IMG/VR virus record: IMGVR_UViG_3300025133_000113
Span: 1-59,874 of that record
DNA length: 59,874 nucleotides
Source of the DNA: a virus
Taxonomy: Duplodnaviria; Caudoviricetes
Direction: 5' to 3' (one strand)
This document shows, piece by piece, positions 9,688 to 38,370 of the stretch. The position numbers and the translations under genes were made by a program. The stretch's first letter is position 1; every line of letters begins with the position of its first letter. The notes beneath the pieces are model-generated. The model was not told the DNA's origin and made no database searches. It saw only the letters and a list, made by a program, of their open reading frames with translations.

Positions 9688-10122
9688 ATGAGGTTTGATG
9701 AAAATATACATTTTCACTTCATGTCCATCATGAGTGAGATGGTGGTGATGTATTATGACCATTACCATGGTGTTACGGTTGCCGCTAGTCTTCAAAGCAC
9801 TAGGCAAGAAACCCCATCCACGATATTGGTGAGAAGTGGCACTAAAGGGGCTTTTGAGGCATTCTGCGGCACTATTAGGCGTTATGTGGTAAATCCTACC
9901 ACTAAAGACTTTTACGTAACGGAGAGGCGAGAAGAGGTACTTATCACTTGGTTGATGATGGAGCTTGAGGGTGAGTTCGGATTGGATGAGGCAATGGCGG
10001 CAGAGATGATATCAGATTTTTTTGCCGATTACTATTACCGTGATATTTATACAATACAGAAGACAATTAATGATTATTTCTTCCCTAACGGGTATTACAA
10101 CAAATTAAAAGGTAACTTATGA
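9688..10122 (+). CDS. hypothetical protein
   Basis: ORF coupled to thioredoxin. Confidence 0.6.
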   Translation: MRFDENIHFHFMSIMSEMVVMYYDHYHGVTVAASLQSTRQETPSTILVRSGTKGAFEAFCGTIRRYVVNPTTKDFYVTERREEVLITWLMMELEGEFGLDEAMAAEMISDFFADYYYRDIYTIQKTINDYFFPNGYYNKLKGNL

Positions 10123-18675: not shown

Positions 18676-19119
18676 ATGCTATTAGAAAAGAAAGAAATTA
18701 ACGGAAAAACTAAAGCGCTTTACGAATCAAGTAACGTTTTAGCATCAACTTACTGTCCAATGTCAAATGTGTTGCAGGTTATCTTCAAGAACGGTACCAG
18801 ATACGCCTATAAGGATGTGAGAGCAACCGATTACATGAGATTTGAGACTGCTGACAGTCAAGGTAAGGTATTAAATGCCAACATTAAACCCAACTATGAA
18901 GTTGAAAAGCTGGAAGGTGTTGATGCTGCCGTAGTTATTGCGGCTGTAGATAAAGCTAAGACTGCTGGTGAGACTTCATTATTCACTGAGTGTGCTGATA
19001 GATTAGCTCTTGGTTTAGAGAAGTTTGAGGGTAAATATGACCTTAAGTTTGTACTTACGGTTAGAAAAATAGCGCAGCAAACATTAGATGCTGTTGGATA
19101 CGAAGAAGAAACCAAATGA
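18676..19119 (+). CDS. KTSC-domain protein
   Basis: SSNV....Y......LQVIFKNGTRYAYKDV....F..ADSQGK..N.NIK. Confidence 0.85.
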   Translation: MLLEKKEINGKTKALYESSNVLASTYCPMSNVLQVIFKNGTRYAYKDVRATDYMRFETADSQGKVLNANIKPNYEVEKLEGVDAAVVIAAVDKAKTAGETSLFTECADRLALGLEKFEGKYDLKFVLTVRKIAQQTLDAVGYEEETK

Positions 19120-19493
19120 GCAACGAGAAAATAGAGTTAGACGAGTTTATTAAACTCGCAATAAAGAATTGGGGTGAGGATACTCCGACACTAGACGAAC
19201 GCTTTGATAGTCGTTGGCGGTTAAGATTCGTGATGGATTTATGTGAAATAGATTTTGATGAAGAGTTCGGTGAGGATTTCCCTTACGAATTTGTTGATGA
19301 TAAAGAAGTCATTGGACATAAGAATAGTTACATCAACTTCACCGTTATTAAGCGTAAGAGTGATGGTAAATATTTTCAGATTCATACTAGAAGTGGTAGT
19401 TATGGGACTGATATGAGCGATGATTCGTTTACTGAAACTAAAAAGGTGGTGGTGGAACCACGTTGGGAGTTTCAAGATTGGAATATGGACTAA
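19116..19493 (+). CDS. hypothetical protein
   Basis: Coupled ORF; KRKSDGKYF motif. Confidence 0.7.
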   Translation: MSNEKIELDEFIKLAIKNWGEDTPTLDERFDSRWRLRFVMDLCEIDFDEEFGEDFPYEFVDDKEVIGHKNSYINFTVIKRKSDGKYFQIHTRSGSYGTDMSDDSFTETKKVVVEPRWEFQDWNMD

Positions 19494-20014
19494 TGTTCAA
19501 TGAAGGTTACTTAAATAAACGAGAGAGTGGTTGGACAGTTAAATGGTCTGACCTACACTCTTTTGCTCAGGGGAGACATTGGAACGAAACACCTTTACAT
19601 CCAGAGCAACAACCAGATTGGGTATTCCCAGAGACCATCCCACTTGACGACACTTTGGTAGTGGAGTTTGAACACGTAACTGATGGGTACGATGCTGATA
19701 ACTTCACACCTTGGAAGTACGCTAGAATTAAAACACCAACAACAGAAATGGAGAAAATATACAACCAAATTAAGAGTGAATGTGAATTACCAGTAGCGGT
19801 ATTCACATATTCTCACAGAGATTTTGAGGGGGCGATTCATCCGTTCAATAGTATTCATGTAAACCTTAGAGGTGAAGATGATGAGAATAATATTGACCAA
19901 ATGATGACTATTAAGAAGAAGTATGGAGAGTTCTTCATGTTCTTCAATGCTAGTGATGAAGGTAAGAAGTTCTGGGCGAATAACCCAATAACGATTAACC
20001 CAACAACAGAATGA
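19493..20014 (+). CDS. hypothetical protein
   Basis: Start moved to the TAATG-coupled ATG at 19493. Confidence 0.7.
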   Translation: MFNEGYLNKRESGWTVKWSDLHSFAQGRHWNETPLHPEQQPDWVFPETIPLDDTLVVEFEHVTDGYDADNFTPWKYARIKTPTTEMEKIYNQIKSECELPVAVFTYSHRDFEGAIHPFNSIHVNLRGEDDENNIDQMMTIKKKYGEFFMFFNASDEGKKFWANNPITINPTTE

Positions 20015-20427
20015 TAGAAAATTACTTTGATAAACAGTTTAAGACCTTACTGGGGGCTAAGATAGCGGTGTTCCTTAAGAGGATATACGATTGGCATATG
20101 TACACCAGAGAGGGTTGTAAGATTTTAGTCATGCGGTATCACATTTACAAATGGTTGGAGAATCCTGACCGATATGTGATACACGGTAGGGTTCATTGTG
20201 ATGTTCCCAGATTCCCATACATACCACCAACCCTAAACCTAGAAACGGGGCAAATAGACCTTAGATTCAACCAATTGGCTAATGACCAAGATTTCTATTT
20301 TGGTATACCAGACAATTCACATCTAACTGATGGTCAGAGAGAAGCTGACTGCAACGGTGCGCTCAAGGAAATACAAGATAGGTACTACCCCGTTACAGCT
20401 AACATTACTTGGAATGAAGTCGAGTAA
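20011..20427 (+). CDS. hypothetical protein carrying a copy of the portal clip peptide
   Basis: TGQIDLRFNQLANDQDF vs portal TGQVDLRYNQLANDQDF (15/17 aa identical). Confidence 0.8.
   Translation: MIENYFDKQFKTLLGAKIAVFLKRIYDWHMYTREGCKILVMRYHIYKWLENPDRYVIHGRVHCDVPRFPYIPPTLNLETGQIDLRFNQLANDQDFYFGIPDNSHLTDGQREADCNGALKEIQDRYYPVTANITWNEVE
20245..20295 (+). repeat. 51-nt diverged duplicate of portal gene segment 31096-31146
   Basis: 45/51 nt identical, in the same reading frame. Confidence 0.9.
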
Positions 20428-20575
20428 AAAGGTTGAACTAATAGATTTAAGTAAGGTTCCAACCTTTAGAGAAATGTATATATTCTGGGATACACCAGAG
20501 GAAATGCACCAATGGGCTAGGAAAAAACTAATGGTACCAAGAAAATATTTAGGATATGACGAAAAGAAAAGATAG
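20414..20575 (+). CDS. hypothetical protein
   Basis: Start moved to ATG 20414. Confidence 0.55.
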   Translation: MKSSKKVELIDLSKVPTFREMYIFWDTPEEMHQWARKKLMVPRKYLGYDEKKR

Positions 20576-20837
20576 AGAGTGGGAAAAGACCTTTGAAGAA
20601 TACTGTAAGGAATTTGGATATGAGGAAAAATTAACATTAGTGCCGACCACAAGGTCATTCGCTGAGTTGATATACCACCATTCCGTATACGTTAACAGCC
20701 AAAAGAACCTTAGTTGGAGAAGAGGAATACTGCGAATTGAGAAGATATTGGATAAGTACGCTGAACTTAAACGGACTGAGATGTTGGATAAGTACGCTGA
20801 AGTTATGCAATTGGAACAGAAACGAAATAATAAGTAA
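20556..20837 (+). CDS. hypothetical protein
   Basis: Contains the short internal repeat LDKYAE x2. Confidence 0.65.
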   Translation: MTKRKDREWEKTFEEYCKEFGYEEKLTLVPTTRSFAELIYHHSVYVNSQKNLSWRRGILRIEKILDKYAELKRTEMLDKYAEVMQLEQKRNNK

Positions 20838-21234: not shown

Positions 21235-21516
21235 ATGACTAAATTAAGTACTGAGGAAGGAGAGAATGGTAAGGAGCGAGTATTCGTTAGTCCTCGTGTT
21301 TACACGGTTGACCCGCCTGAGTTCTACGTAGACCGTAGGTTGCATGCCATATGGTTTGCATTAACAGCGTGGGACGATACGGTAACCTACTATGATTTGT
21401 ATCGAGATGAACCAAACGATAGGAGTTTGGTGGTGGGTATGAAATATGCTGAATTAGAAAGATTATACGACAGCCTATACAATTACGATGGGTCAACAAA
21501 AAAGAAAGATACCTAA
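21235..21516 (+). CDS. hypothetical protein with tail-sheath-like N-terminal motif
   Basis: RVFVSPRVYT resembles the sheath N-terminal (F)xSPGVY motif. Confidence 0.65.
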   Translation: MTKLSTEEGENGKERVFVSPRVYTVDPPEFYVDRRLHAIWFALTAWDDTVTYYDLYRDEPNDRSLVVGMKYAELERLYDSLYNYDGSTKKKDT

Positions 21517-22664
21517 TGAACAACCTAGATAAACAATATCAAGCCTTACTCCAAGACATCTTGGATAATGGGCACGACAAAGGGGATAGAACTGGTACTG
21601 GTACCAAGTCAGTATTCCCACGAATGATTACACATAACATGGCTGAGGGTTTCCCTCTGCTGACCACCAAGAAGATGTACCATAAGGGTATCTTCACTGA
21701 GCTATTATGGCTCCTACGTGGTGATACCAATATCCAATGGTTATGTCAGAATGATTGTAATATATGGGTTGGTGATGCTTATAAGAGTTACCTATCTAAA
21801 ACAATGTTTAGTTCGGATAATGGTGCTCTTGAGGAATTAGACGGAATGGATTTGGGGACTGGTGAGTTAAAGAAGGTGTATAAACAACACACAAAAGAAG
21901 GTTTCATTGAACGTATTAAAACCGATGACGAGTTTGCTGAAGAATGGGGAGACCTAGGTCCTATCTACGGAAAGCAATGGAGAAATTGGGAGCCACCCGC
22001 TTGGAATATCAAGAATGGTGGGATTGACCAAATAGCAAATGCGCTTAACGACTTAACCAATAATCCTGATAGTAGGAGAATCATGGTTAATGCGTGGAAC
22101 GTGGGAGAAGTATCACATATGACATTACCTCCATGCCACTTCGGGTTCCAATTGTGGACAAGAGAGTTGAGTTCATTTGAACGAGAGGAACACTTTGCTT
22201 ACAAAATGAATAATATGACCCACCAAGAACGATGTGAATTGCATCCAAATCACCGTGAGGAAGATGTACATGAGAAGATGGATGAGGAAGGTGTACCTAG
22301 ACGAGCAATATCGTTAACATGGCAACAACGAAGTGTTGATACCTTCCTTGGTTTACCGTTTAACATTGCGTCTTACGGAGCTTTGTTGATGATATTTGGT
22401 GAACTGGTCAATATGGTACCAGAAACGCTTACAGGTGTTCTAGGAGATACCCACCTATACAACAATCACTTAGAACAAGCCAAAGAACAGATTGGTAATG
22501 AACCTTTCGACTTACCTAACCTTAGAATCAGTACAGAATTCTGGAACCCAGAGAATGTGCTTGGTACTAACTGGGATGAAATAATCAAAGGTATTGAGTT
22601 GGAAGACTTCCAATTGGAAGATTACGTGTCTCACGAGACGATTAAAGCACCATTAAGTAATTAA
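21516..22664 (+). CDS. thyA: thymidylate synthase with two insertions
   Basis: DRTGTGT, FPLLTTKK, DLGPIYGKQWR, PDSRR, LPPCH, QRSVD.FLGLPFN, HLYNNH. Confidence 0.97.
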   Translation: MNNLDKQYQALLQDILDNGHDKGDRTGTGTKSVFPRMITHNMAEGFPLLTTKKMYHKGIFTELLWLLRGDTNIQWLCQNDCNIWVGDAYKSYLSKTMFSSDNGALEELDGMDLGTGELKKVYKQHTKEGFIERIKTDDEFAEEWGDLGPIYGKQWRNWEPPAWNIKNGGIDQIANALNDLTNNPDSRRIMVNAWNVGEVSHMTLPPCHFGFQLWTRELSSFEREEHFAYKMNNMTHQERCELHPNHREEDVHEKMDEEGVPRRAISLTWQQRSVDTFLGLPFNIASYGALLMIFGELVNMVPETLTGVLGDTHLYNNHLEQAKEQIGNEPFDLPNLRISTEFWNPENVLGTNWDEIIKGIELEDFQLEDYVSHETIKAPLSN

Positions 22665-24684: not shown

Positions 24685-25913
24685 AGGAAACTAAATACAA
24701 GTTAAAACTTGATAACCCTAACCCTGCACCAGCACCTGAATTAGGCGCTGATGATGGTGGTTTCGGTGGTGACGATGGTGGTTTCGGTGGTGACGATGGT
24801 GGTTTCGGTGACGAGCCTGAAATGGGTGGTGACGATAAACCATATGATGAAGAACCATTCGATGCTGACGTTGAAGCTGACGAAGCGTCAGACCCAAAGA
24901 AGTATATCCAACAATTGTCTGGAAAGCTGGGTCAATCCCTAAGAAAGTATGAAAAGGAAATGGGACAACCCGACCTAGAGTTGGAGAAGTTCGCAATTAA
25001 CTCCGTTGTATCTGCATCTAATACCGCAGAGATGGACGAGGAAGACCAAAAGGATATTATCGATAAGATTAAGTCTAGTGGGCTTGAGAATGATATCGCT
25101 GAACCAGACGCTGAAGACGCTGAAGTGGATGCTGATGCTGTTGGTGCAGAGTTACCTGAACCAGAAGGTGAAGAGTTTGGTGATGAGCCTGAGTTGGGTG
25201 AAGTTGCTATAATGGAATTAGGTGGAGGACCACCAGAAGATAGGGAATATGATGCGATGCAGACATATCATGACAGACAAGCTAATGCTGGTACAAAAAG
25301 TAACTACCACGTTAGTGTAGACAAAAAAGGGAACTTCAAAGTGGGGGAACCTGAAAAGAGATTCCCAAGTGGTAAAATTGTTAATGGTGAGAGGGTTTCA
25401 GATGATAAGTGGGGTAAAACCGAGCAAGTGTCAGAAGAAATTAGTATATTCGAGCAAAGACTTAGAAGTAAGTTGAATGAGAACCTTAAGTACCCTACCA
25501 GAGAGGTAAGAAGTGAACGTGGTTATTTAGGTGTTACAGTATGGGGTGATAGTGGAAGCGTATCGTTGGATATTTACTCCAAGCAGAATAACCCATATGG
25601 TGGTTCACCATGGAGTAAGATTCAATCTGGTGGTGGAGTTAGACCTGAAGAATTAACTAAAGAGTACATAATGCGTGAAGTAGGTGCAAGATATAAGAAC
25701 CCTGAGAGTTTTGTGGGGGAAATTGATGAGGTGTTGAGTAAATTGAATGATGGTTACGAACAAATGATGCAAGATATGAATCCAGAAATAGCAGAACCAG
25801 AAGTAAAACCTAAGAGAAAAGAGGAACAAGCACCTAAGAGAGTTAGGGAAACCGACCTACCATATAGGAAACCTGTGAGGGAAACTAAGACTAAACCAAA
25901 AGCGACAATATGA
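24672..25913 (+). CDS. acidic head-module protein, C-terminal part of probable fusion
   Basis: Frame is open 50 codons upstream of the first ATG (24822) with no ATG/GTG/TTG; KYIQQLSGKLGQSLR. Confidence 0.75.
   Translation, partial: KKKLKETKYKLKLDNPNPAPAPELGADDGGFGGDDGGFGGDDGGFGDEPEMGGDDKPYDEEPFDADVEADEASDPKKYIQQLSGKLGQSLRKYEKEMGQPDLELEKFAINSVVSASNTAEMDEEDQKDIIDKIKSSGLENDIAEPDAEDAEVDADAVGAELPEPEGEEFGDEPELGEVAIMELGGGPPEDREYDAMQTYHDRQANAGTKSNYHVSVDKKGNFKVGEPEKRFPSGKIVNGERVSDDKWGKTEQVSEEISIFEQRLRSKLNENLKYPTREVRSERGYLGVTVWGDSGSVSLDIYSKQNNPYGGSPWSKIQSGGGVRPEELTKEYIMREVGARYKNPESFVGEIDEVLSKLNDGYEQMMQDMNPEIAEPEVKPKRKEEQAPKRVRETDLPYRKPVRETKTKPKATI
24753..24810 (+). repeat. 21-nt tandem coding repeat (DGGFGGD, about 2.8 copies)
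   Basis: GATGGTGGTTTCGGTGGTGAC tandem. Confidence 0.9.
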
Positions 25914-28052: not shown

Positions 28053-29876
28053 ATGTTAACAGCAGCCGAAATATTAGAAGAATACACGCAGTGTCTATTA
28101 GACCCGAAGTATGTCATTTCAACATACTTCAAAACTTTTGATAAGACACAAGAAGGGTTTGTACCGTTCGACCTATTCCCCAAACAAAGAGATATCGTTG
28201 ATGACTATAGAAAGCATCGATTCAATCTAGTAGCCAAGCCTAGACAGGCTGGTATATCCACTACAACACAAGCATATGCAGCCACCCTTGTCGGGTTTGC
28301 TGACGATAAGAATCCAGAGTGTATCGTGGTTGTCGCTAACAAACTGAAGTTAGCTAAGAAATTCACTAAAGGTATAAAGAACTTTGTTAATCAACTTCCA
28401 AGATGGGTGTGGGGTGACGAATATTACGGCACAAAAGAGAAGGAAGAAAAAGACATCTTCGTAACGGAGAATCAAGAAGAGATGGAACTGGTCAATGGTT
28501 GTTTAATCGTGGCTGTTGCGACATCTGAGGATGCTTTGCGTGGTTACACGCCTACACTACTTATCATGGATGAGGCTGCGTTCATCGAAAGGGGTGATGA
28601 ACTATTTGCTGCTGCCCTTACCTCACTTGGTACTGGTGGAAAGGCAACTCTTATTTCAACACCTAAAGGACAAGACCCACTATACTACGAGACTTACGAC
28701 CAAGCTAAGAAAGGTGAGAACGACTTCAATGTAATTGAGATGCGTTGGTATGAGGATTTGCGATATAATAAAGACCTCAGATGGTACAAATACTTAGATG
28801 ATGAAGAACTTGAAAAAGAGTGGTTAGAAGAATACGAATTCACCTTCGAATCATACGATAAAAAACTAAGGGCTGGCTATAAACCTACATCTTCATGGTA
28901 TGAGGAAATGTGTAGAGCGATGAATAACGATAAGCGTAGGATAGCTCAAGAGCTTGATGTATCATTCCTTGGTTCAGGTGGTAACGTAATTGATGATAAA
29001 TACATTAATCACCACGAATTGCACAACGTGTGTGAACCTAAGTGGAAAGCTGGTAAAGGTAACGAGATTTGGATATGGGAGAAACCCGTTGAGGGTCACG
29101 AATATATTCTAGCTTCAGACGTATCCAGAGGTGATGGGGAAGACTCATCTACATTCACCATCATAGATGTTACAACCATGGAGCAAGTGGTTGAATACAT
29201 AGGTAAACTACCACCAGATAAGTTAGCCGACATCCTATGGGAATATGGTATATTATATAACGCATTATTAGTAGTGGATATTACAGGTGGTATGGGTGTC
29301 ACGACAACTTTGAAGTTGAAGGAGATGAAATACCCTCACTTATATTACGAGCGAAGAGGTGATAAACTATTGAAACCTAGGAAGGAAGATAATAAGTATA
29401 AACCTAAGATTGAAACTCCTGGTTATCAGGTAGGTTCAGACAGGGTTGCTTTGGTTAGTAATCTTGAGAGGATGGTACGATTGAATTGTGATGAAGGTAT
29501 CAATAAAGGTATCAAGGTTCGGTCAAGCAGAACGATTAGCGAATTCCACACATTCATATACAAGAACGGACGTGCTGACCACCAAGAGGGTAAGCATGAT
29601 GACCTTATAATGGCATTGGGTATGGCGTTATTCATATTGGAGTTCTCCTTCAGTAAGTTAAAGTCATTGAAGACAAAGACAAAGACAATGCTTAATAGTT
29701 GGATAGTCAATAGTAGTGATACGATAGAACCACACTTAGAAAGTGGTAGTGGGTTTGTTGATAAAGCCAACAGGCGTAAGAAGGCTCAACCTAAACCTAA
29801 ATTTGATGCTACGACAGCTAGAAATATGCAAGACCCTTCGGGTCAATATTTATGGTTGTTCAGTGGCACTAAGTAA
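28053..29876 (+). CDS. gp17: terminase large subunit (T4 gp17-like)
   Basis: LFPKQ, KPRQAGISTT, LLIMDEAAF Walker B, ISTPKG, QEL, DVSRGDGEDSS, HDDLIMA. Confidence 0.95.
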   Translation: MLTAAEILEEYTQCLLDPKYVISTYFKTFDKTQEGFVPFDLFPKQRDIVDDYRKHRFNLVAKPRQAGISTTTQAYAATLVGFADDKNPECIVVVANKLKLAKKFTKGIKNFVNQLPRWVWGDEYYGTKEKEEKDIFVTENQEEMELVNGCLIVAVATSEDALRGYTPTLLIMDEAAFIERGDELFAAALTSLGTGGKATLISTPKGQDPLYYETYDQAKKGENDFNVIEMRWYEDLRYNKDLRWYKYLDDEELEKEWLEEYEFTFESYDKKLRAGYKPTSSWYEEMCRAMNNDKRRIAQELDVSFLGSGGNVIDDKYINHHELHNVCEPKWKAGKGNEIWIWEKPVEGHEYILASDVSRGDGEDSSTFTIIDVTTMEQVVEYIGKLPPDKLADILWEYGILYNALLVVDITGGMGVTTTLKLKEMKYPHLYYERRGDKLLKPRKEDNKYKPKIETPGYQVGSDRVALVSNLERMVRLNCDEGINKGIKVRSSRTISEFHTFIYKNGRADHQEGKHDDLIMALGMALFILEFSFSKLKSLKTKTKTMLNSWIVNSSDTIEPHLESGSGFVDKANRRKKAQPKPKFDATTARNMQDPSGQYLWLFSGTK

Positions 29877-30147: not shown

Positions 30148-32265
30148 ATGGCTGACAAGAAAAAAGATTTAACAATATTTCAAAAGTTGAATAGGATTTT
30201 AACTCCTGATGGAATTAATCCCAACTTAGAACTGAGTAATAAGTATTCACTAGGGAGCGATGTCCTATTGAAGACTGACAATAAGCAAGAATACGAGCAG
30301 CAAAAGCTACAAGCGAAGCAAAGTAAGTATTTAAGTAACATGTGGGGTAAGGTTGAGGACAACCTATTCCAACAAGCCATACAGTATGAGATGACCAGAA
30401 TCGGGGCTTACTCCGATTTTGAGAACATGGAATTCTACCCAGAACTTGCAGCCACCCTTGATATCATGATGGAGGAATCTACCACCGTAAATGATAAAGG
30501 TAGGGTACTTAATATCTATTCAGATAGTCCACGTATTAGAGGTATTCTGGAAGACCTATTTTTCAATAGATTGGATATACATACCGTATTACCTATGTGG
30601 GTGCGTAACACTTGCAAGTATGGTGATAACTTCGTATATCTTAATACAAGTGACAAATATGGTATCACTGGTGCCAAGCAAATGCCTAACTTCGAAATGG
30701 AGAGGCGTGAGGGTGGTGTATACGACACTATTACAGCTAAATTGAATAGTACATCTGAAAATGGTAAAGATAGGTCAGGTGAGAGCAAAGAAGAACGTGT
30801 ACGTTTCTTTTGGAGAGGTCGAGACTTAGAGTTTGAGTCATGGCAAGTAGCCCACTTCAGATTACTTGGTGATGACAGGCGATTACCTTATGGTACGAGC
30901 GTGTTAGAGAAGTCTAGAAGGATTTGGAAACAACTATTGTTATCTGAGGATGCAATGCTTGTATATCGTGTTACACGAGCGCCAGAGCGTAGAGTGTTCA
31001 AGATTTATGTTGGTAACATAGATGATGAGGATGTACAACCATACGTAAACGAGATTGCCAATCGATTTAAGAGAGCTAACGTAATTGACCCTAACACTGG
31101 GCAAGTAGACCTTAGATACAACCAATTGGCGAATGACCAAGACTTTTTCATCCCAGTAAGAGATGAAAATGCTCCTACCCCAATCGACACACTTCAGGGT
31201 GCTAGTAACCTAGACCAGATTGCGGATATCGAGTATCTACAACGTAAGTTATTTACTGCATTGAGGGTACCTAAGTCTTTCTTAGGATTTGAAGAGTCTC
31301 AGGGTGAGGGTAAGAACTTAGCATTGATGGATGTAAGGTTTGCTAGAACAATTAATAGAATACAACAAGCACTATTACAAGAGCTTAATAAGATTGCCAT
31401 AATACACTTGGTGTTACTAGGTTTTGAGGATGACTTGAACAGCTTCACCATTACAATGAATAACCCATCTACACAAGCAGAGATGCTTAGGATAGAGCAC
31501 TTACAGGCTAAGTTTACAGCTATACAAGCTGCTGTTGCCGATGCTGGTAATGGGTTTGGAATTATGTCAATGACAAAAGCCAAGAGAGATATACTTGGAT
31601 GGAGTGATGCTGAGATTAAGCAAGACCTTCTTGAACAACGTATGGAGAAAGCGGCTGCTGCTGAATTGGAGAATACTTCCAATGTCATTAAGAACACAGG
31701 CTTCTTCGATAAGGTTGATAAACTATACGGTGACATTGAAGTCGCCAGAGGTGGTGGTGCGGCTGAAGAAGGTGGTGAAGATGGAGGTCCTACTGGTGGT
31801 GGAGGTGGTGGCTTCGGTGGTGGTGGTATCGGTGGTGACGATATAGACTTTGGAGACGAAGAAGGTGGAGACGAAGAAGGTGGAGACTTCGGAGATGATG
31901 CTGGTGGAGAAGGATTTGGTGATGATGCTGATGCTGGTGGAGATGACTTAGGTGGTGATGATGCTGGTGGTGATGATGCCGCAGCAGAACCTGCTGGCGA
32001 ATTAGGTGAGATGCTTAAGATTGGTCAAAGAATCTTATCTGAGGAAAAACTGATATTGGTAGACAAGTTAACCAAGAGAAAGATGCGTCACAAGGAAATC
32101 CACATGAACAGGTTAATGGAGAGTATCACCAAAAGTGATATGGACGATGCTGTTAATGAAAACAGGATTAGTCTAACTGACAAAGGTATGCGTATAAACC
32201 AAAATGTTGATGATATGTTGAAAGATATTAACGACAGAATTGAGGAAGCGGATAGTGACGAATAA
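30148..32265 (+). CDS. gp20: portal protein (T4 gp20-like) with Gly/Asp-rich tail
   Basis: PYGTSVLE...EDAMLVYRVTRAPERRVF...DIEYLQRKLFTALRVPKSFL...DVRFARTINRIQ. Confidence 0.95.
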   Translation: MADKKKDLTIFQKLNRILTPDGINPNLELSNKYSLGSDVLLKTDNKQEYEQQKLQAKQSKYLSNMWGKVEDNLFQQAIQYEMTRIGAYSDFENMEFYPELAATLDIMMEESTTVNDKGRVLNIYSDSPRIRGILEDLFFNRLDIHTVLPMWVRNTCKYGDNFVYLNTSDKYGITGAKQMPNFEMERREGGVYDTITAKLNSTSENGKDRSGESKEERVRFFWRGRDLEFESWQVAHFRLLGDDRRLPYGTSVLEKSRRIWKQLLLSEDAMLVYRVTRAPERRVFKIYVGNIDDEDVQPYVNEIANRFKRANVIDPNTGQVDLRYNQLANDQDFFIPVRDENAPTPIDTLQGASNLDQIADIEYLQRKLFTALRVPKSFLGFEESQGEGKNLALMDVRFARTINRIQQALLQELNKIAIIHLVLLGFEDDLNSFTITMNNPSTQAEMLRIEHLQAKFTAIQAAVADAGNGFGIMSMTKAKRDILGWSDAEIKQDLLEQRMEKAAAAELENTSNVIKNTGFFDKVDKLYGDIEVARGGGAAEEGGEDGGPTGGGGGGFGGGGIGGDDIDFGDEEGGDEEGGDFGDDAGGEGFGDDADAGGDDLGGDDAGGDDAAAEPAGELGEMLKIGQRILSEEKLILVDKLTKRKMRHKEIHMNRLMESITKSDMDDAVNENRISLTDKGMRINQNVDDMLKDINDRIEEADSDE

Positions 32266-34005: not shown

Positions 34006-34704
34006 ATGCTGGAAATTAAGACATTACGGGCTGGGGAAACTGGCACAGGTTACCTAATTGAGCAAGATGCTGGTTATATCTCACCTACGGATGAGAGGAA
34101 CCAATCATTCATCAATGAGGTTAAGAAGTTAGGTGGTGGTGGTGTTTCTATACTTGAACCATTAAAGGTAGTTGCAGTATTACAGAAATACGGTGTTGAA
34201 AATCGTAACGGTAGAATCTACCCAGAACATATCCTTAGAGCACAAGCCGAGGAATATGATAAATTAGTACAAGACAATCGCGCACTTGGGGAACTAGACC
34301 ACCCAGAATCATCAATTATTTCAGGAAAAGAAGTATCTCACAATATCACTAAGATATGGTGGGAAGGAGCCACCCTTATGGGAGAGCTTGACATTATAAT
34401 GAGTCCAGGTTATGTAAACTTAGGTATCATTTCATGTGAAGGTGATAAGGTTGCTAATTTCTTAAGACGTGGAATTAAAATCGGTGTATCTTCAAGAGGT
34501 GTAGGTTCAGTTGAGGACGTAAATGGTGTTCAATTAGTACAAGATGATTTCGAATTAATATGCTGGGATGTGGTCACAAACCCATCAACTCCAGGTTCTT
34601 GGATATTCCAAAACAATAAGGAAGCAGGCGCCTTTAAAGAGAGCGTTGAAGAGAAGAAGCCTACTGGTTTAAGCTCAGGTTTAGATTCATTCCTATTGGG
34701 ATAA
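34006..34704 (+). CDS. gp21: prohead protease (T4 gp21-like)
   Basis: NRNGRIYP, ALGELDHP, VSH, GVSSRGVGS, DVVTNPS. Confidence 0.95.
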   Translation: MLEIKTLRAGETGTGYLIEQDAGYISPTDERNQSFINEVKKLGGGGVSILEPLKVVAVLQKYGVENRNGRIYPEHILRAQAEEYDKLVQDNRALGELDHPESSIISGKEVSHNITKIWWEGATLMGELDIIMSPGYVNLGIISCEGDKVANFLRRGIKIGVSSRGVGSVEDVNGVQLVQDDFELICWDVVTNPSTPGSWIFQNNKEAGAFKESVEEKKPTGLSSGLDSFLLG

Positions 34705-34851: not shown

Positions 34852-36528
34852 ATGGAAGGAAAAGATAAAGAAAAAGAAACTATGAGTGAAGCGGTTACTG
34901 ATATTGATATAATCAAAAACGCTTTAAGTGAAAACTCCAAAGAAATATTTCGACACGTTGCTGTCGAAGAAATTGAGGGAGTGGTTAAGGAATCTATTAA
35001 TGAAGATTTCGAAGAAGAAGACATCGATTTAGATGACGACTCTGATGATGTTGAGGACATGCCAGTTGATGGCGATGGTGACCTTGGCGCTGATGATGAC
35101 TCAATTGGGGTTGATGTTGACGCTGACTCAGATGGTGGGGACGACATTGCAATAGATGCTGAACCTGCGAGTATAGATGGTGTGGATGCAATGGCATCAG
35201 ACATGGACAGCGAAGTAGATTTAACATCTGCATCTGATAACGAAGTTCTAGCTGTATACAAGGAATTGTCAATGAGTGATGAAATTGAAGTTGTCGGAGA
35301 TGAAGTACACATGAACATTACCGAACCAGGTAAGTACATTATTAAGCCAGAAGGTGGAGCACCAGATATGGGCGCTGATTTAGGTGGACTAGGAGAACCA
35401 GATTTGGGAGGACTAGACGCAGAGATGGGTGCAGAACCAGAGATGGGAGCAGAACCTGATTTGGGACTAGAACCAGAAATGGGTGCTGAACCAGAAATGG
35501 GAGCAGAACCTGAACTGGAAGTACCAATGGGTGGTGAAGAAGAAGAAGAAGAAATTGGAATCGAAGACGGTTGCAAGAAAGAAGATGACGTTGTGTACGA
35601 AGTCGAAATTAACGAGAGCGAAGGTGCTCATCATGACCACATGAAGGAAACTACGCCACCTAATTCAGGTGATATAGACTCACAGACTTCTAAAGAATTG
35701 CCAGCAGACCTAACGGGGGATAACCTTGAAGGTGGATTTGGAGAACAAGAAGCTAAGAATGGTTCAGGTGATGCTCACGCAGAACACGTTATGGGAGCAG
35801 ACGGAAAGACTGACCCAACAGCAAAAACTAATGCTACAGCAAATCCAGGCGAAGAAAAAATCGAAGGAAATGGTGGTAGTTCAGAAGCAGCACACGGTGA
35901 CCATGTAATGGAAGGCGAAGATGAGGTTGTTGAAGGAGAGATTGCTGAAGAAGAAGTCGTAGAAGGTGAAGAGGCGTTAGACGAGCAAATTCCAGTAGGT
36001 AAAAGACAAAGTGTCGTTTACAAAGGTGGTGAAGACCGTACAAGCATCAAAGGTGCTGGTGGTGTAGCCAACAACAAAAAAGATGGAAATGTAACAGTAT
36101 CTAACAATACAAATGAATCTACAGAATACCAAAATTTAGTCAGTGAAGCAAACAAACTGAAAGAACAAAACGCAGCATTCAATAAGAAGCTGGTTGAGTA
36201 CAAGAAGATGTTGGCTGAGACAGTGGTGTTCAACTCAAACTTAACACATGTTGTTAAACTCTTTATGGAGAATATTACCACTAAAGATGAAAAGAAAAAC
36301 ATTATCACAAGATTTGATAATGAAGTTAAGTCATTGAAAGAATCTAAGCAGCTTTATAATAAGCTTGCTTCTGACCTAACAAGTAGAACTCCTTTATTTG
36401 AAGGTGTAAACCTTGACAGGACGGTATCGACAGGTTCCTCATCACTTAATGAGCAAACAACTTATGTTGACAAAGAGACTGCACGTATCAACGAATTGAT
36501 GGGACGAGTAGAAAAAATCGGAAAATAA
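34852..36528 (+). CDS. prohead core / scaffolding protein (gp22-like)
   Basis: Very acidic; between protease and capsid; EPEMGA repeats; C-terminal coiled coil. Confidence 0.8.
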   Translation: MEGKDKEKETMSEAVTDIDIIKNALSENSKEIFRHVAVEEIEGVVKESINEDFEEEDIDLDDDSDDVEDMPVDGDGDLGADDDSIGVDVDADSDGGDDIAIDAEPASIDGVDAMASDMDSEVDLTSASDNEVLAVYKELSMSDEIEVVGDEVHMNITEPGKYIIKPEGGAPDMGADLGGLGEPDLGGLDAEMGAEPEMGAEPDLGLEPEMGAEPEMGAEPELEVPMGGEEEEEEIGIEDGCKKEDDVVYEVEINESEGAHHDHMKETTPPNSGDIDSQTSKELPADLTGDNLEGGFGEQEAKNGSGDAHAEHVMGADGKTDPTAKTNATANPGEEKIEGNGGSSEAAHGDHVMEGEDEVVEGEIAEEEVVEGEEALDEQIPVGKRQSVVYKGGEDRTSIKGAGGVANNKKDGNVTVSNNTNESTEYQNLVSEANKLKEQNAAFNKKLVEYKKMLAETVVFNSNLTHVVKLFMENITTKDEKKNIITRFDNEVKSLKESKQLYNKLASDLTSRTPLFEGVNLDRTVSTGSSSLNEQTTYVDKETARINELMGRVEKIGK

Positions 36529-36564: not shown

Positions 36565-38370
36565 ATGTCACACTTATTAAATACAGGTACAGTCGGAAAC
36601 ATCGGACTAAACCACATGAAAGACGTGAGAAAGAAAGTACAAGATAAATGGGATTCCACTGGTTTCCTTGCTGGATTGGAAGGACACATTAAGGAGAATA
36701 TGGCTCAGTTGTACGAGAACCAAGCTGGTAGCTTGATTACCGAATCAACTAATGCAACATCTTCAGGTTCTTTTGAGACTGTAGTTTTCCCTATCGTAAG
36801 AAGGGTATTCTCAAAATTGCTAGCGAATGATATCGTTAGTGTACAAGCGATGAACTTACCAATTGGTAAATTGTTCTTCTTTATACCACAAACATCTAGC
36901 CGTGTTGACGCTGCTAACCAGCCTGGTAGTAACTATAATGGTGAAGCAATTGTTCCAGGAAGCCAATTCTCTGCACATACATCTATGGCAGTAGACGGAT
37001 TACCTGATTGTGTAAATGCTGTTGCAGGTTGTGCTGTTACACCAATGATGGGTAAAAACCTATATGACCTTTTCTACAACGATGGTCTTTTTGATAACTC
37101 AAAAGGTACGTTGACTATTAGAGTAGGTACATTGTCTGCCGTTTTGCTTGATGCAAACGGAGATTTCTCTAATACTGTTGGTGCATTGCCAGCAGCTACT
37201 GACGGAACTGTAAGAGAAGCGATTATTCGTGTATCTGGTTTCGCGGCAAACCCAGACCTAGATAAAGGTCGATTGACTGGTCCTGATGGACACCCAATGG
37301 ACACTGAGTCATTCTTGGCGTCACTTACTGTTATTAACAATGGTGTTGCAATTCTTGACCCAGATGCTGACCCAATTATTGCAAACGGTGGTTCTGTACC
37401 TTTCCGAGTGGTAACACAAAGATATGGTAGTGGTATCGTAGGATATGATAACATTTGTGATGCAAATGGTGATATCTTCTTGGGATGTGATTTAACTCAC
37501 CCTGTAACTGCTGCTGGTACATCAACATTTGATGGATACGTAGGGGCTTCAGGTTTCACAGGATTATCTGCTGCAACTTTCAACGTTGCATGGGCTGAAT
37601 ACGCAAGTCTTGAGTTCGAAACTGAAATGGGAGAAGTAAGCTTCACACTTGATGAGGTTGTTGTTTCTGTTGAAGAAAGAAAATTAAGAGCTACTTGGTC
37701 TCCAGAGCTTGCGCAAGATGTTAGTGCATTCCACAACATTGACGCTGAAGCGGAATTGACTGCGTTACTTTCTGAGCAAATTGCTTCTGAAATTGACCGT
37801 GAAATTCTTAGAGACCTAAGAAAAGTAGGCGCATGGCAATCACGTTGGGATTACACGGGATGGAGAAAGTCAAGTCAAGCATCTAATGCTTACACACAAA
37901 AAGACTGGAACCAAACGTTAATTACTAAGGTTAACCAAATCTCTGCTCAAATTCACAAGTCAACTCTACGTGGTGGTGCAAACTTCATCGTAGTATCGTC
38001 TGAAATTTCAGCAATCTTTGATGACCTAGAGTACTTCCACGTTTCTGACGCAAGTCCAGAGCAAGACCAATATAACATGGGTATCGAGAGAATCGGTTCA
38101 CTAGGAGGACGTTACCAAGTGTATCGTGACCCTTATGCTCCATCTTGGTCAATGATTATCGGTCACAAAGGTAAGTCACTGTTGGATACAGGTTACATCT
38201 ACGCACCATACGTGCCAATGCAACTTACTCCTACAATGTACAACCCGTTCAACTTCGCACCAGTGAAGGGTATCATGACGAGATACGCTAAGAAGTCTGT
38301 TAATAACAGGTTCTACGGTGGAGTTCGTGTGGACGGAGTGCCAACATTCAACATCAACGAATTGAGATAA
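36565..38370 (+). CDS. gp23: major capsid protein (T4 gp23-like)
   Basis: FPIVRRVF, VSVQAM, RKLRATWSPELAQD, DAEAELTALLSEQIASEIDREIL, GYIYAPYVP, MTRY. Confidence 0.97.
   Translation: MSHLLNTGTVGNIGLNHMKDVRKKVQDKWDSTGFLAGLEGHIKENMAQLYENQAGSLITESTNATSSGSFETVVFPIVRRVFSKLLANDIVSVQAMNLPIGKLFFFIPQTSSRVDAANQPGSNYNGEAIVPGSQFSAHTSMAVDGLPDCVNAVAGCAVTPMMGKNLYDLFYNDGLFDNSKGTLTIRVGTLSAVLLDANGDFSNTVGALPAATDGTVREAIIRVSGFAANPDLDKGRLTGPDGHPMDTESFLASLTVINNGVAILDPDADPIIANGGSVPFRVVTQRYGSGIVGYDNICDANGDIFLGCDLTHPVTAAGTSTFDGYVGASGFTGLSAATFNVAWAEYASLEFETEMGEVSFTLDEVVVSVEERKLRATWSPELAQDVSAFHNIDAEAELTALLSEQIASEIDREILRDLRKVGAWQSRWDYTGWRKSSQASNAYTQKDWNQTLITKVNQISAQIHKSTLRGGANFIVVSSEISAIFDDLEYFHVSDASPEQDQYNMGIERIGSLGGRYQVYRDPYAPSWSMIIGHKGKSLLDTGYIYAPYVPMQLTPTMYNPFNFAPVKGIMTRYAKKSVNNRFYGGVRVDGVPTFNINELR

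Follow-up and report, generated by a model that had tools for sequence, protein, structure and literature searches.

A short portal-derived tract from the clip domain, in frame within an orphan accessory gene of a T4-type phage

Mosaic orphan genes are found in the variable ('hyperplastic') regions of T4-like phages, where they are built by illegitimate or short-homology recombination. Here, a small open reading frame (ORF) of 138 amino acids (aa) is considered, which lies at 20011-20427 of the IMG/VR virus record IMGVR_UViG_3300025133_000113 (Duplodnaviria; Caudoviricetes) and which contains a 17-codon piece that closely resembles a piece of the portal gene of the same phage. The window, which is the whole stretch of DNA that was analysed, is this 59,874-base record, whose completeness is estimated at about 18%.

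Another described system with which this locus can be compared is the portal protein of phage T4, gp20. According to the available part of PMC4493910, the clip domain of T4 gp20 comprises residues 279-358 and forms a three-stranded sheet, with one strand coming from one subunit and two strands coming from its neighbour, and this is the only main-chain inter-subunit sheet of the portal. The residues of T4 gp20 that are set against the terminase in the available parts of PMC4493910 and PMC12929587 are N291, M292, R295 and K296, on helix alpha6, whereas R338 and K342 belong to the inner clip loop (Sun et al., PMC4493910). In the same parts of these two sources, the charged T4 portal contacts are R295, K296 and R339, and the mis-assembled gp14 touches K309, N291, N323 and R311 of the portal.

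The comparison of the small ORF with the portal gene of its own phage concerns the following features.
20011-20427, plus strand: carrier ORF, an orphan accessory gene, 138 aa, intact
20245-20295, plus strand: core portal-derived tract, 17 codons, identical to the portal at 45/51 nucleotides (nt)
30148-32265, plus strand: portal gene, 705 aa; PF07230 Portal_T4, E 1.3e-74 (residues 88-493); phrog_213, E 3.9e-60; 3ja7/6uzc, E ~1e-25
31096-31146, plus strand: portal copy of the tract, residues 317-333, equal to T4 gp20 318-334 in the clip domain; among the most conserved stretches of the portal family

The two copies are identical at 45 of 51 nt in an ungapped alignment, and both are codon-aligned in their own ORFs, such that their peptides read TGQIDLRFNQLANDQDF and TGQVDLRYNQLANDQDF. 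The six nucleotide differences (ORF/portal) are four synonymous ones (ACG/ACT, GCT/GCG, GAT/GAC and TTC/TTT) and two conservative replacements (I/V and F/Y). Both the in-frame match and this division of the differences had been described in an earlier note on this DNA and are reproduced by the codon comparison, as is its description of the carrier as a small accessory gene. The portal-derived stretch lies in frame in an intact ORF. When the 51-mer of the ORF is compared with either strand of the window, its second-best match is 28/51, and control 51-mers from the same island (n=155) reach at most 33/51 in their best non-self match (mean 28.7). In the all-against-all blastp comparison of 262 stop-to-stop frames of at least 60 aa, this is the sole match at E <= 0.05 that pairs a small frame with a structural gene (E 1.8e-7). 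Clearly, a chance origin of the 45/51 match is excluded. A different candidate pair, 9904-9936 and 28449-28481 (ORF 9688-10122 and the large terminase, TerL), is identical at 27/33 nt in frame (KDFYVTERREE/KDIFVTENQEE); this similarity is at chance level, with no blastp match at E <= 0.05, and the pair was rejected.

The gene at 30148-32265 is identified as a T4-type portal gene by the Portal_T4 profile and by its similarity to solved gp20. Its residue 258 aligns with residue 259 of T4 gp20, so that portal residues 317-333 correspond to T4 residues 318-334, and in this alignment the assignment of the copied peptide to the clip domain holds, as the earlier note had proposed. The same note regarded this part of the portal as the region that contacts terminase and neck proteins, and this is not sustained for the tract: in the available parts of the T4 sources the named contacts are mostly outside the copied stretch, and only N323 and an unnamed clip beta-strand might be inside it.

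The similarity is a short tract with sharp boundaries. In register, the 60 nt on either side of the core are identical at 16/60 and 17/60 positions (27-28%, as for random sequence), whereas a neutral flank as old as the synonymous divergence of the core (dS 0.62) is expected to be about 58% identical. A strict gapped local alignment pairs 20239-20295 with 31091-31146, and no further portal fragments are found in any frame of 18.5-22 kb. A hidden Markov model (HMM) of five related portals matches ORF residues 74-100 only (27.9 bits). The scores of the N- and C-terminal remainders of the ORF against this five-portal profile are reached by 154/1000 and 286/1000 shuffles, respectively, and anchored Smith-Waterman alignments give p values of 0.15-0.44 for the upstream flank and 0.72-0.81 for the downstream flank. 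A possible extension is seen next to the core, on its upstream side.
20230-20244, plus strand: candidate upstream remainder of the tract with insertions and deletions, suggested by the gapped alignment, a shared 7-mer and the MAFFT alignment

At this site, ACCCTAA at 20230-20236 equals portal 31088-31094, and an imperfect repeat, ACCTAGAA, comes next. Four inserted residues (TLNL) are seen in the ORF just before the core when it is compared with the portals and with its homologue P0002 (described below), and in the MAFFT alignment YIPP/YIDP of the small proteins falls on the VIDP of the portals. From the 7-mer match and the insertion it can be suggested that the tract may originally have been about 70 nt long. 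The upstream echo between PDRYVIHGRV and PERRVFKIYV, to which the earlier note had drawn attention, is set in the same register by HHalign and by MAFFT, but it is not significant alone: once the core is masked, the score of the upstream part is 13.05, which is reached by 90/200 column shuffles, and the echo is therefore a colinear hint and not a finding. For the downstream part, 54/200 shuffles reach the score when the core is masked, and its best match is not colinear.

The tract derives from a portal gene of the phage's own lineage. In IMG/VR, 473 related portals are found, and across 89 distinct ones the motif of the tract is TGQ[IV]DL[RK][FY]NQ[LM][AS]NDQD[FYI]; in an alignment of 45 portals, the invariant columns are T317, G318, Q319, D321, N325, D330, Q331 and D332. 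Two portals are nearest to the ORF tract, the own one and the one of the closest relative (L021/G007), with 45/51 each, and the remaining portals listed reach at most 43/51. The ORF tract and the own portal have codons in common that are rare among the 89 portals (GGG in 2/89, GAC at residue 321 in 15/89 and CTT at residue 322 in 12/89). These rare shared codons, together with the closest match, point to a donor in the portal lineage of this phage itself.

The carrier ORF lies within a packed run of small genes on the same strand, and its ATG overlaps the stop codon of the upstream gene (ATGA at 20011-20014). Its frame has the top coding score of the six frames, at +0.128, which is low, like the scores of two neighbours, and promoter and terminator scans give results that are no better than for shuffled sequence. 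The ORF has no match to a family of Pfam (E <= 0.01), PHROG, PADLOC or NCBIfam. For the structure, the Atlas entry has a model with a predicted local distance difference test (pLDDT) of 0.50, no usable feature match and structural neighbours with template modelling (TM) scores of at most 0.42. Contigs without any difference from the window are found elsewhere (X2, 875 nt, 19860-20734; X3, 19893-20043 and 20072-20222; X4, 164 nt, 20220-20383; X5, 20156-20306), and the tract is spanned by identical contigs that come from three other studies. These copies show that the sequence is real and that the strain is widespread; being identical, they carry no information on selection. The sequencing runs that hold the sequence are labelled as marine metagenomes, and no RNA is listed among them. 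One contig of run X2 joins 20554 to 20836 with six other letters between, which makes it a weak candidate for a variant without the gene 20556-20837, the shorter side of the junction being 21 letters long.

Homologues of the ORF are rare. The HMMER search against 1.84 billion representative proteins gives five matches at E <= 0.001, which are the ORF itself, P0002, P0003 and two tandem-repeat proteins. The latter (P0004 and P0005) are long proteins that are matched in 8 and 5 stretches; they are treated as repeat-amplified chance matches and left aside. P0002 (82 aa) is 58% identical over ORF residues 41-125 (E 5.3e-15) and starts at a position that coincides with Met41 of the ORF; P0003 (103 aa) is 45% identical over ORF residues 2-56 (E 4e-7) and unrelated thereafter. 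Both are without a family in PHROG, PADLOC and NCBIfam. The ORF is divided accordingly.
20011-20130, plus strand: N-terminal module, residues 1-40, predicted to be helical (low-confidence model, pLDDT 42); common to the N-terminus of P0003
20131-20427, plus strand: C-terminal module, residues 41-138, with a Met start; homologous to P0002; holds the tract
19463-20014, plus strand: upstream gene, 183 aa; homologue P0007, 60% identical

The longest-contig figure is the same, 1980 b, for P0002, P0003 and P0007, from which it follows that the three probably lie side by side on one contig. If P0002 and P0003 adjoin, the ORF would correspond to two genes of that relative joined into one, and from these matches the ORF has the appearance of such a fusion. 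The upstream gene seems to travel with the ORF in this only related contig, and it is far more widespread than the ORF.

The ORF and P0002 share the invariant blocks ENPDRYVIHG, ETGQ, LANDQD and TDGQREA. The tract region of P0002 reads ETGQADYEFLFEKLANDQDMY (in its wider context YIDPETGQADYEFLFEKLANDQDMY); TGQ.D and LANDQD are kept, and the middle of the motif is diverged and has a 2-residue insertion. P0002 and the ORF have the same residue at 11/17 tract positions, which is no higher than the protein-wide 58%. The polar tract positions of P0002 change in charge (R to E, N to E and Q to K), and the alternating hydrophobic positions are, in our reading, kept.

Other collections hold no further homologue. 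The word-indexed protein searches give the ORF itself and P0002 only; the scan of JGI metagenome contigs with the ORF/P0002 alignment, the IMG/VR scans seeded with P0002 and P0003, and the searches of the phage collection and of the prokaryote genome collection find no homologue. When IMG/VR is scanned with the ORF or with the ORF/P0002 alignment, all of the confirmed loci are portals (9/9 and 65/65, respectively). In the same way, all ten related records (G001-G010, two of them 100% complete) match the ORF only through their portal genes. Absence or free decay of the peptide in orthologues had been named in the earlier note as the outcome that would speak against its maintenance, and this outcome is seen in part: the gene is absent from these 10/10 records and the middle of the peptide is diverged in P0002.

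The island that holds the ORF lies between a Clp-type ATPase gene and thyA, and this arrangement is found in 4/5 of the relatives that were searched with these two genes; the fifth record, G007, begins just upstream of thyA, with the Clp side off the record. The Clp-thyA island measures 0.8-1.7 kb in the four relatives, compared with 3.0 kb in the window. The ORF is missing from 5/5 syntenic islands of relatives, among them the island of G007, the closest relative, which has a portal that is 83-86% identical. G007 is without the genes 19463-20014 and 20556-20837 as well as the ORF, and in G006 thyA comes immediately after a homologue (71% identical) of the gene 19116-19493. A homologue of the C-terminal domain of the upstream gene is present at eleven metagenome loci (L168-L178), at several of them just before thyA, and at these eleven loci a homologue of the ORF is found in 0/11 cases at E <= 0.01 (best E with relaxed settings, 0.98). 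This C-terminal domain (...KYGEFFMFFN...NPITI...) is widespread in metagenome contigs and belongs to no known family.

The thymidylate synthase gene that borders the island (21516-22664, 382 aa) is matched by a Pfam model of 266 positions that is spread over residues 6-381, which indicates a thymidylate synthase with sizeable insertions. It is uninterrupted in the window. In G007 (locus L163; G007:C1 1256-3268 and 3318-3503), thyA is split by a 246-aa HNH-like ORF, which is followed by a GIY-YIG-like ORF, both names being taken from reading of the sequence.

The head genes of the window are of T4 type.
28053-29876: large terminase, T4-type head module
34006-34704: prohead protease, T4-type head module
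36565-38370: major head protein, T4-type head module

The nearest named portals, those of Microcystis phage Mel-JY01 and Flavobacterium phage 'immuto', are 38-39% identical, and some of the related IMG/VR portals are on records of 270-370 kb, which suggests a group of phages with large genomes. The C-terminal third of the portal is a Gly/Asp/Glu-rich region of low complexity (31737-31988), and similar acidic glycine-rich repeats are present at 24731-24841 and 35353-35517, in two other head-region genes. Inteins are carried by the portals of relatives at four sites (~106-111, 156-165, 251-252 and 353, in the numbering of the window portal), at the loci L008/L137, L009, L105, L107, L108, L142, L146, L151, L157 and L158; the frame of L157 (>1388 aa) shows three insertions and that of L108 (1463 aa) shows two. 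On another related record of 54.5 kb (G003, with loci L006 and L017), two divergent inverted terminase-portal modules are present at ~6.6-10.3 kb (minus strand) and 37.3-41.4 kb (plus strand), with portals of 695 and 654 aa and with TerL copies that are 59% and 47% identical to that of the window; this double module may be a chimeric assembly or real.

The explanation that is favoured, with about an even chance of being correct, is that the tract is a short recombination tract in a young accessory gene, present either as a scar or by structural co-option. The ORF would then be a young, lineage-restricted accessory gene of the variable Clp-thyA island, put together by the fusion of two small genes that are apparently separate in the only known relative. 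About 51-57 nt, perhaps about 70 nt originally, would have been copied from the portal gene of the own lineage into the C-terminal module by short-tract recombination, possibly by gene conversion or by templated insertion in break repair. The copied piece is predicted to encode a beta-strand-forming part of the portal clip domain, and in the small protein it would most likely be an ordinary structural strand, which is tolerated and weakly constrained since it folds. Probably, the tract is not a surface that imitates the portal toward terminase, neck or immune sensors.

Several observations weigh against this explanation. No breakpoint, repair signature or donor intermediate is seen, and the recombination mechanism is one that we infer from the tract; the model of the ORF (mean pLDDT 42.2, predicted TM score 0.28) is unusable for the fold. 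A synonymous excess is found in the pairwise comparison with the portal (4 vs 2 changes; dN/dS 0.08-0.16, Fisher p 0.009-0.022). With L021 as the outgroup, parsimony places three synonymous changes and two replacements on the ORF branch and one synonymous change on the portal branch, and the omega of the ORF branch is 0.15-0.21 (Fisher p 0.043-0.078), where the ranges of p depend on the counting of synonymous sites and the test rests on five or six changes, a number at which a synonymous excess over 17 codons can mimic selection. The data lean toward some constraint on the peptide, with purifying selection being borderline. The suggestion of the earlier note that the peptide itself is maintained is in agreement with the pairwise excess, but the value for the ORF branch is borderline and P0002 has diverged in the middle of the motif. 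In addition, P0002 keeps 8/11 of the tract positions that are invariant or near-invariant in portals (T, G, Q, D, N, D, Q and D), and it could be that the same interaction is preserved there. Finally, when the two small proteins are aligned with the 89 portals by HHalign, their residues 5-67 are set on portal residues 272-345 (probability 97.3, E 1.9e-11); this score is driven by the core, and the extension beyond the core is colinear, which leaves room for an older and longer portal ancestry.

Two other explanations were considered. The tract lies in the part that in T4 is the clip, the site of inter-subunit strand pairing (available part of PMC4493910), the replacements in it are in nominal deficit, the portal-invariant TGQ.D and NDQD are kept in both the ORF and P0002, and its motif is common to the 89 distinct portals examined from 473 relatives, so that a single mimic could address many competitors. 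It is possible, although unlikely, that the small protein presents the clip beta-strand or strands and pairs with portal protomers or with a strand partner (for example, the neck adaptor arm), and that it would in this way set the timing of dodecamer assembly, motor docking or neck attachment, or block them, in its own phage or in co-infecting relatives. The more specific proposal of a diffusible self-peptide, being the most conserved clip strand and acting as a timer of head completion or as a poison of the portal-ring assembly or neck attachment of relatives, is doubtful. If a mimic of this sort exists, it would be a new way of regulating or sabotaging phage head assembly, and it would provide a handle on the part of the clip that is sufficient for partner recognition. 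Such a function is difficult to reconcile with the absence of the gene from all of the related records and syntenic islands, and with P0002, whose version of the strand is longer by 2 residues and altered at the polar positions that face outward. Furthermore, the terminase and neck contacts of T4 are, in the available parts of the sources, mainly on alpha6, for which the small proteins have no counterpart (a 12-column gap in the MAFFT alignment with portals), the ORF model is not confident, and the reading comes from sequence likeness rather than from binding. The ancestry can also be seen differently, in that the C-terminal module may be an old stand-alone paralogue of the clip domain, generated by partial duplication of the portal (~272-345, with alpha6 lost), whose core was later re-homogenised by gene conversion; this is quite improbable. 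In agreement with it, HHalign and MAFFT both set IYKWLENPDRYV on VYRVTRAPERRV and pair YI(P/D)P with VIDP, in a placement that is colinear with the core, and IDPETGQ of P0002 matches IDP.TGQ of the portal, farther upstream than the identity of the ORF. At identical-residue codons of the core, 4/15 differ synonymously (27%), compared with 40% over the whole gene when the own portal is set against its counterpart in the closest relative, and with 50-55% at saturation; the probability of at most 4/15 such differences is 0.22 if the rate is 40% and 0.043 if it is 52% (taken for saturation). The core is thus below saturation and compatible with the 40% level while the flanks are at noise, as expected of an old paralogue that has a young conversion tract. 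The flanks, however, are not significant once the core is masked (90/200 upstream and 54/200 downstream), the five-portal HMM stops at ORF residues 74-100, and the family profile is supported by two sequences only.

The remaining explanations have much lower probabilities. Anti-defence genes are often found among small accessory genes, among which the ORF also sits, and we know of no sensor of this portal motif. Since portals trigger Avs4 and Avs11 (available part of PMC13581612), the ORF could be an immune decoy that soaks up or blunts a portal-sensing STAND receptor of the Avs4 or Avs11 type, but this is very unlikely. According to the same part of PMC13581612, Avs1-4 recognise folds, and do so over extended interfaces, whereas the ORF shares 17-28 residues with the portal and has no PF07230 match; such an interface cannot be reproduced by 17 residues within a protein of 138 aa that is otherwise unrelated. 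A faithful mimic of an activating ligand should moreover activate the sensor and not blunt it, the ORF has no match to PADLOC or anti-defence families, and the anti-Avs proteins in the available part of the EVADES preprint are a Rossmann-fold protein and a DNA ligase, neither of them a portal mimic. Of the three functions that had been proposed earlier (decoy, packaging regulator and terminase inhibitor), the decoy is the least likely. A slight probability is also given to the idea that the conserved unit is the nucleic acid, as an RNA structure, a protein-binding DNA site or a duplicated target of a homing endonuclease or intein. In relatives, the portal genes are hot spots for inteins, which insert at four sites, and ORFs resembling homing endonucleases (names from reading of the sequence) lie beside the island in the closest relative, but none of the intein sites touches residues 317-333, the tract has no Rfam match at E <= 1, the RNA folding z-scores are -0.35 and -0.63, and the codon entropy at the conserved residues of the tract is not an outlier within the portal gene. 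For the same reason of position, a remnant of an intein or homing-endonuclease flank was rejected (sites ~106-111, 156-165, 251-252 and 353, none within 317-333). A pair of the diversity-generating retroelement type was rejected because the differences (G/T, A/G, T/A, T/G, T/C and C/T) are not adenine-specific; a reverse transcriptase was not searched for. Finally, the record is derived from metagenomes and its completeness estimate is low, from which an assembly artefact could be considered, in which a chimeric contig splices portal reads into an unrelated gene. The probability of this is negligible: the tract differs from the portal at 6 positions, in frame, and the artefact is excluded by independent contigs, since X2 and X4 carry the tract together with both ORF flanks without any differences.

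When compared with the known systems, the locus differs from each of them. The Lit protease and CapRel sense the major capsid protein, according to the available part of PMC13581612, and a short stretch of a structural protein can therefore be a recognition element; the likeness to the present tract is limited to this point. The motifs of Lit and CapRel act as triggers inside the structural protein itself, whereas a free-standing decoy copy made by a phage is not described in the available part of that article. With the T4 gp20 portal (PF07230), the likeness is homology of a 17-residue core, perhaps of ~28-35 residues, to portal residues 317-333 (up to 312-344). The 138-aa ORF is, nevertheless, without stem, wing, crown and alpha6, and it is not matched by PF07230, the profile by which T4-type portals are recognised; it is neither a portal nor a truncated portal. 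In the literature, no description of a comparable captured piece of a structural gene was found, in searches that were not aimed at this exact question. The mosaic genes of the hyperplastic regions of T4-like phages share with the ORF its small size, its place in a variable island, the occurrence of its modules apart from each other elsewhere and the near absence of homologues. Different from these genes, the donor is here identifiable as an essential structural gene of the same genome, and the copied piece is in frame and almost unchanged. If the favoured explanation, a short recombination tract in a young accessory gene, is correct, this locus would be a clean and datable example of how a phage orphan gene is built, which would be useful for the study of gene birth, although not surprising.

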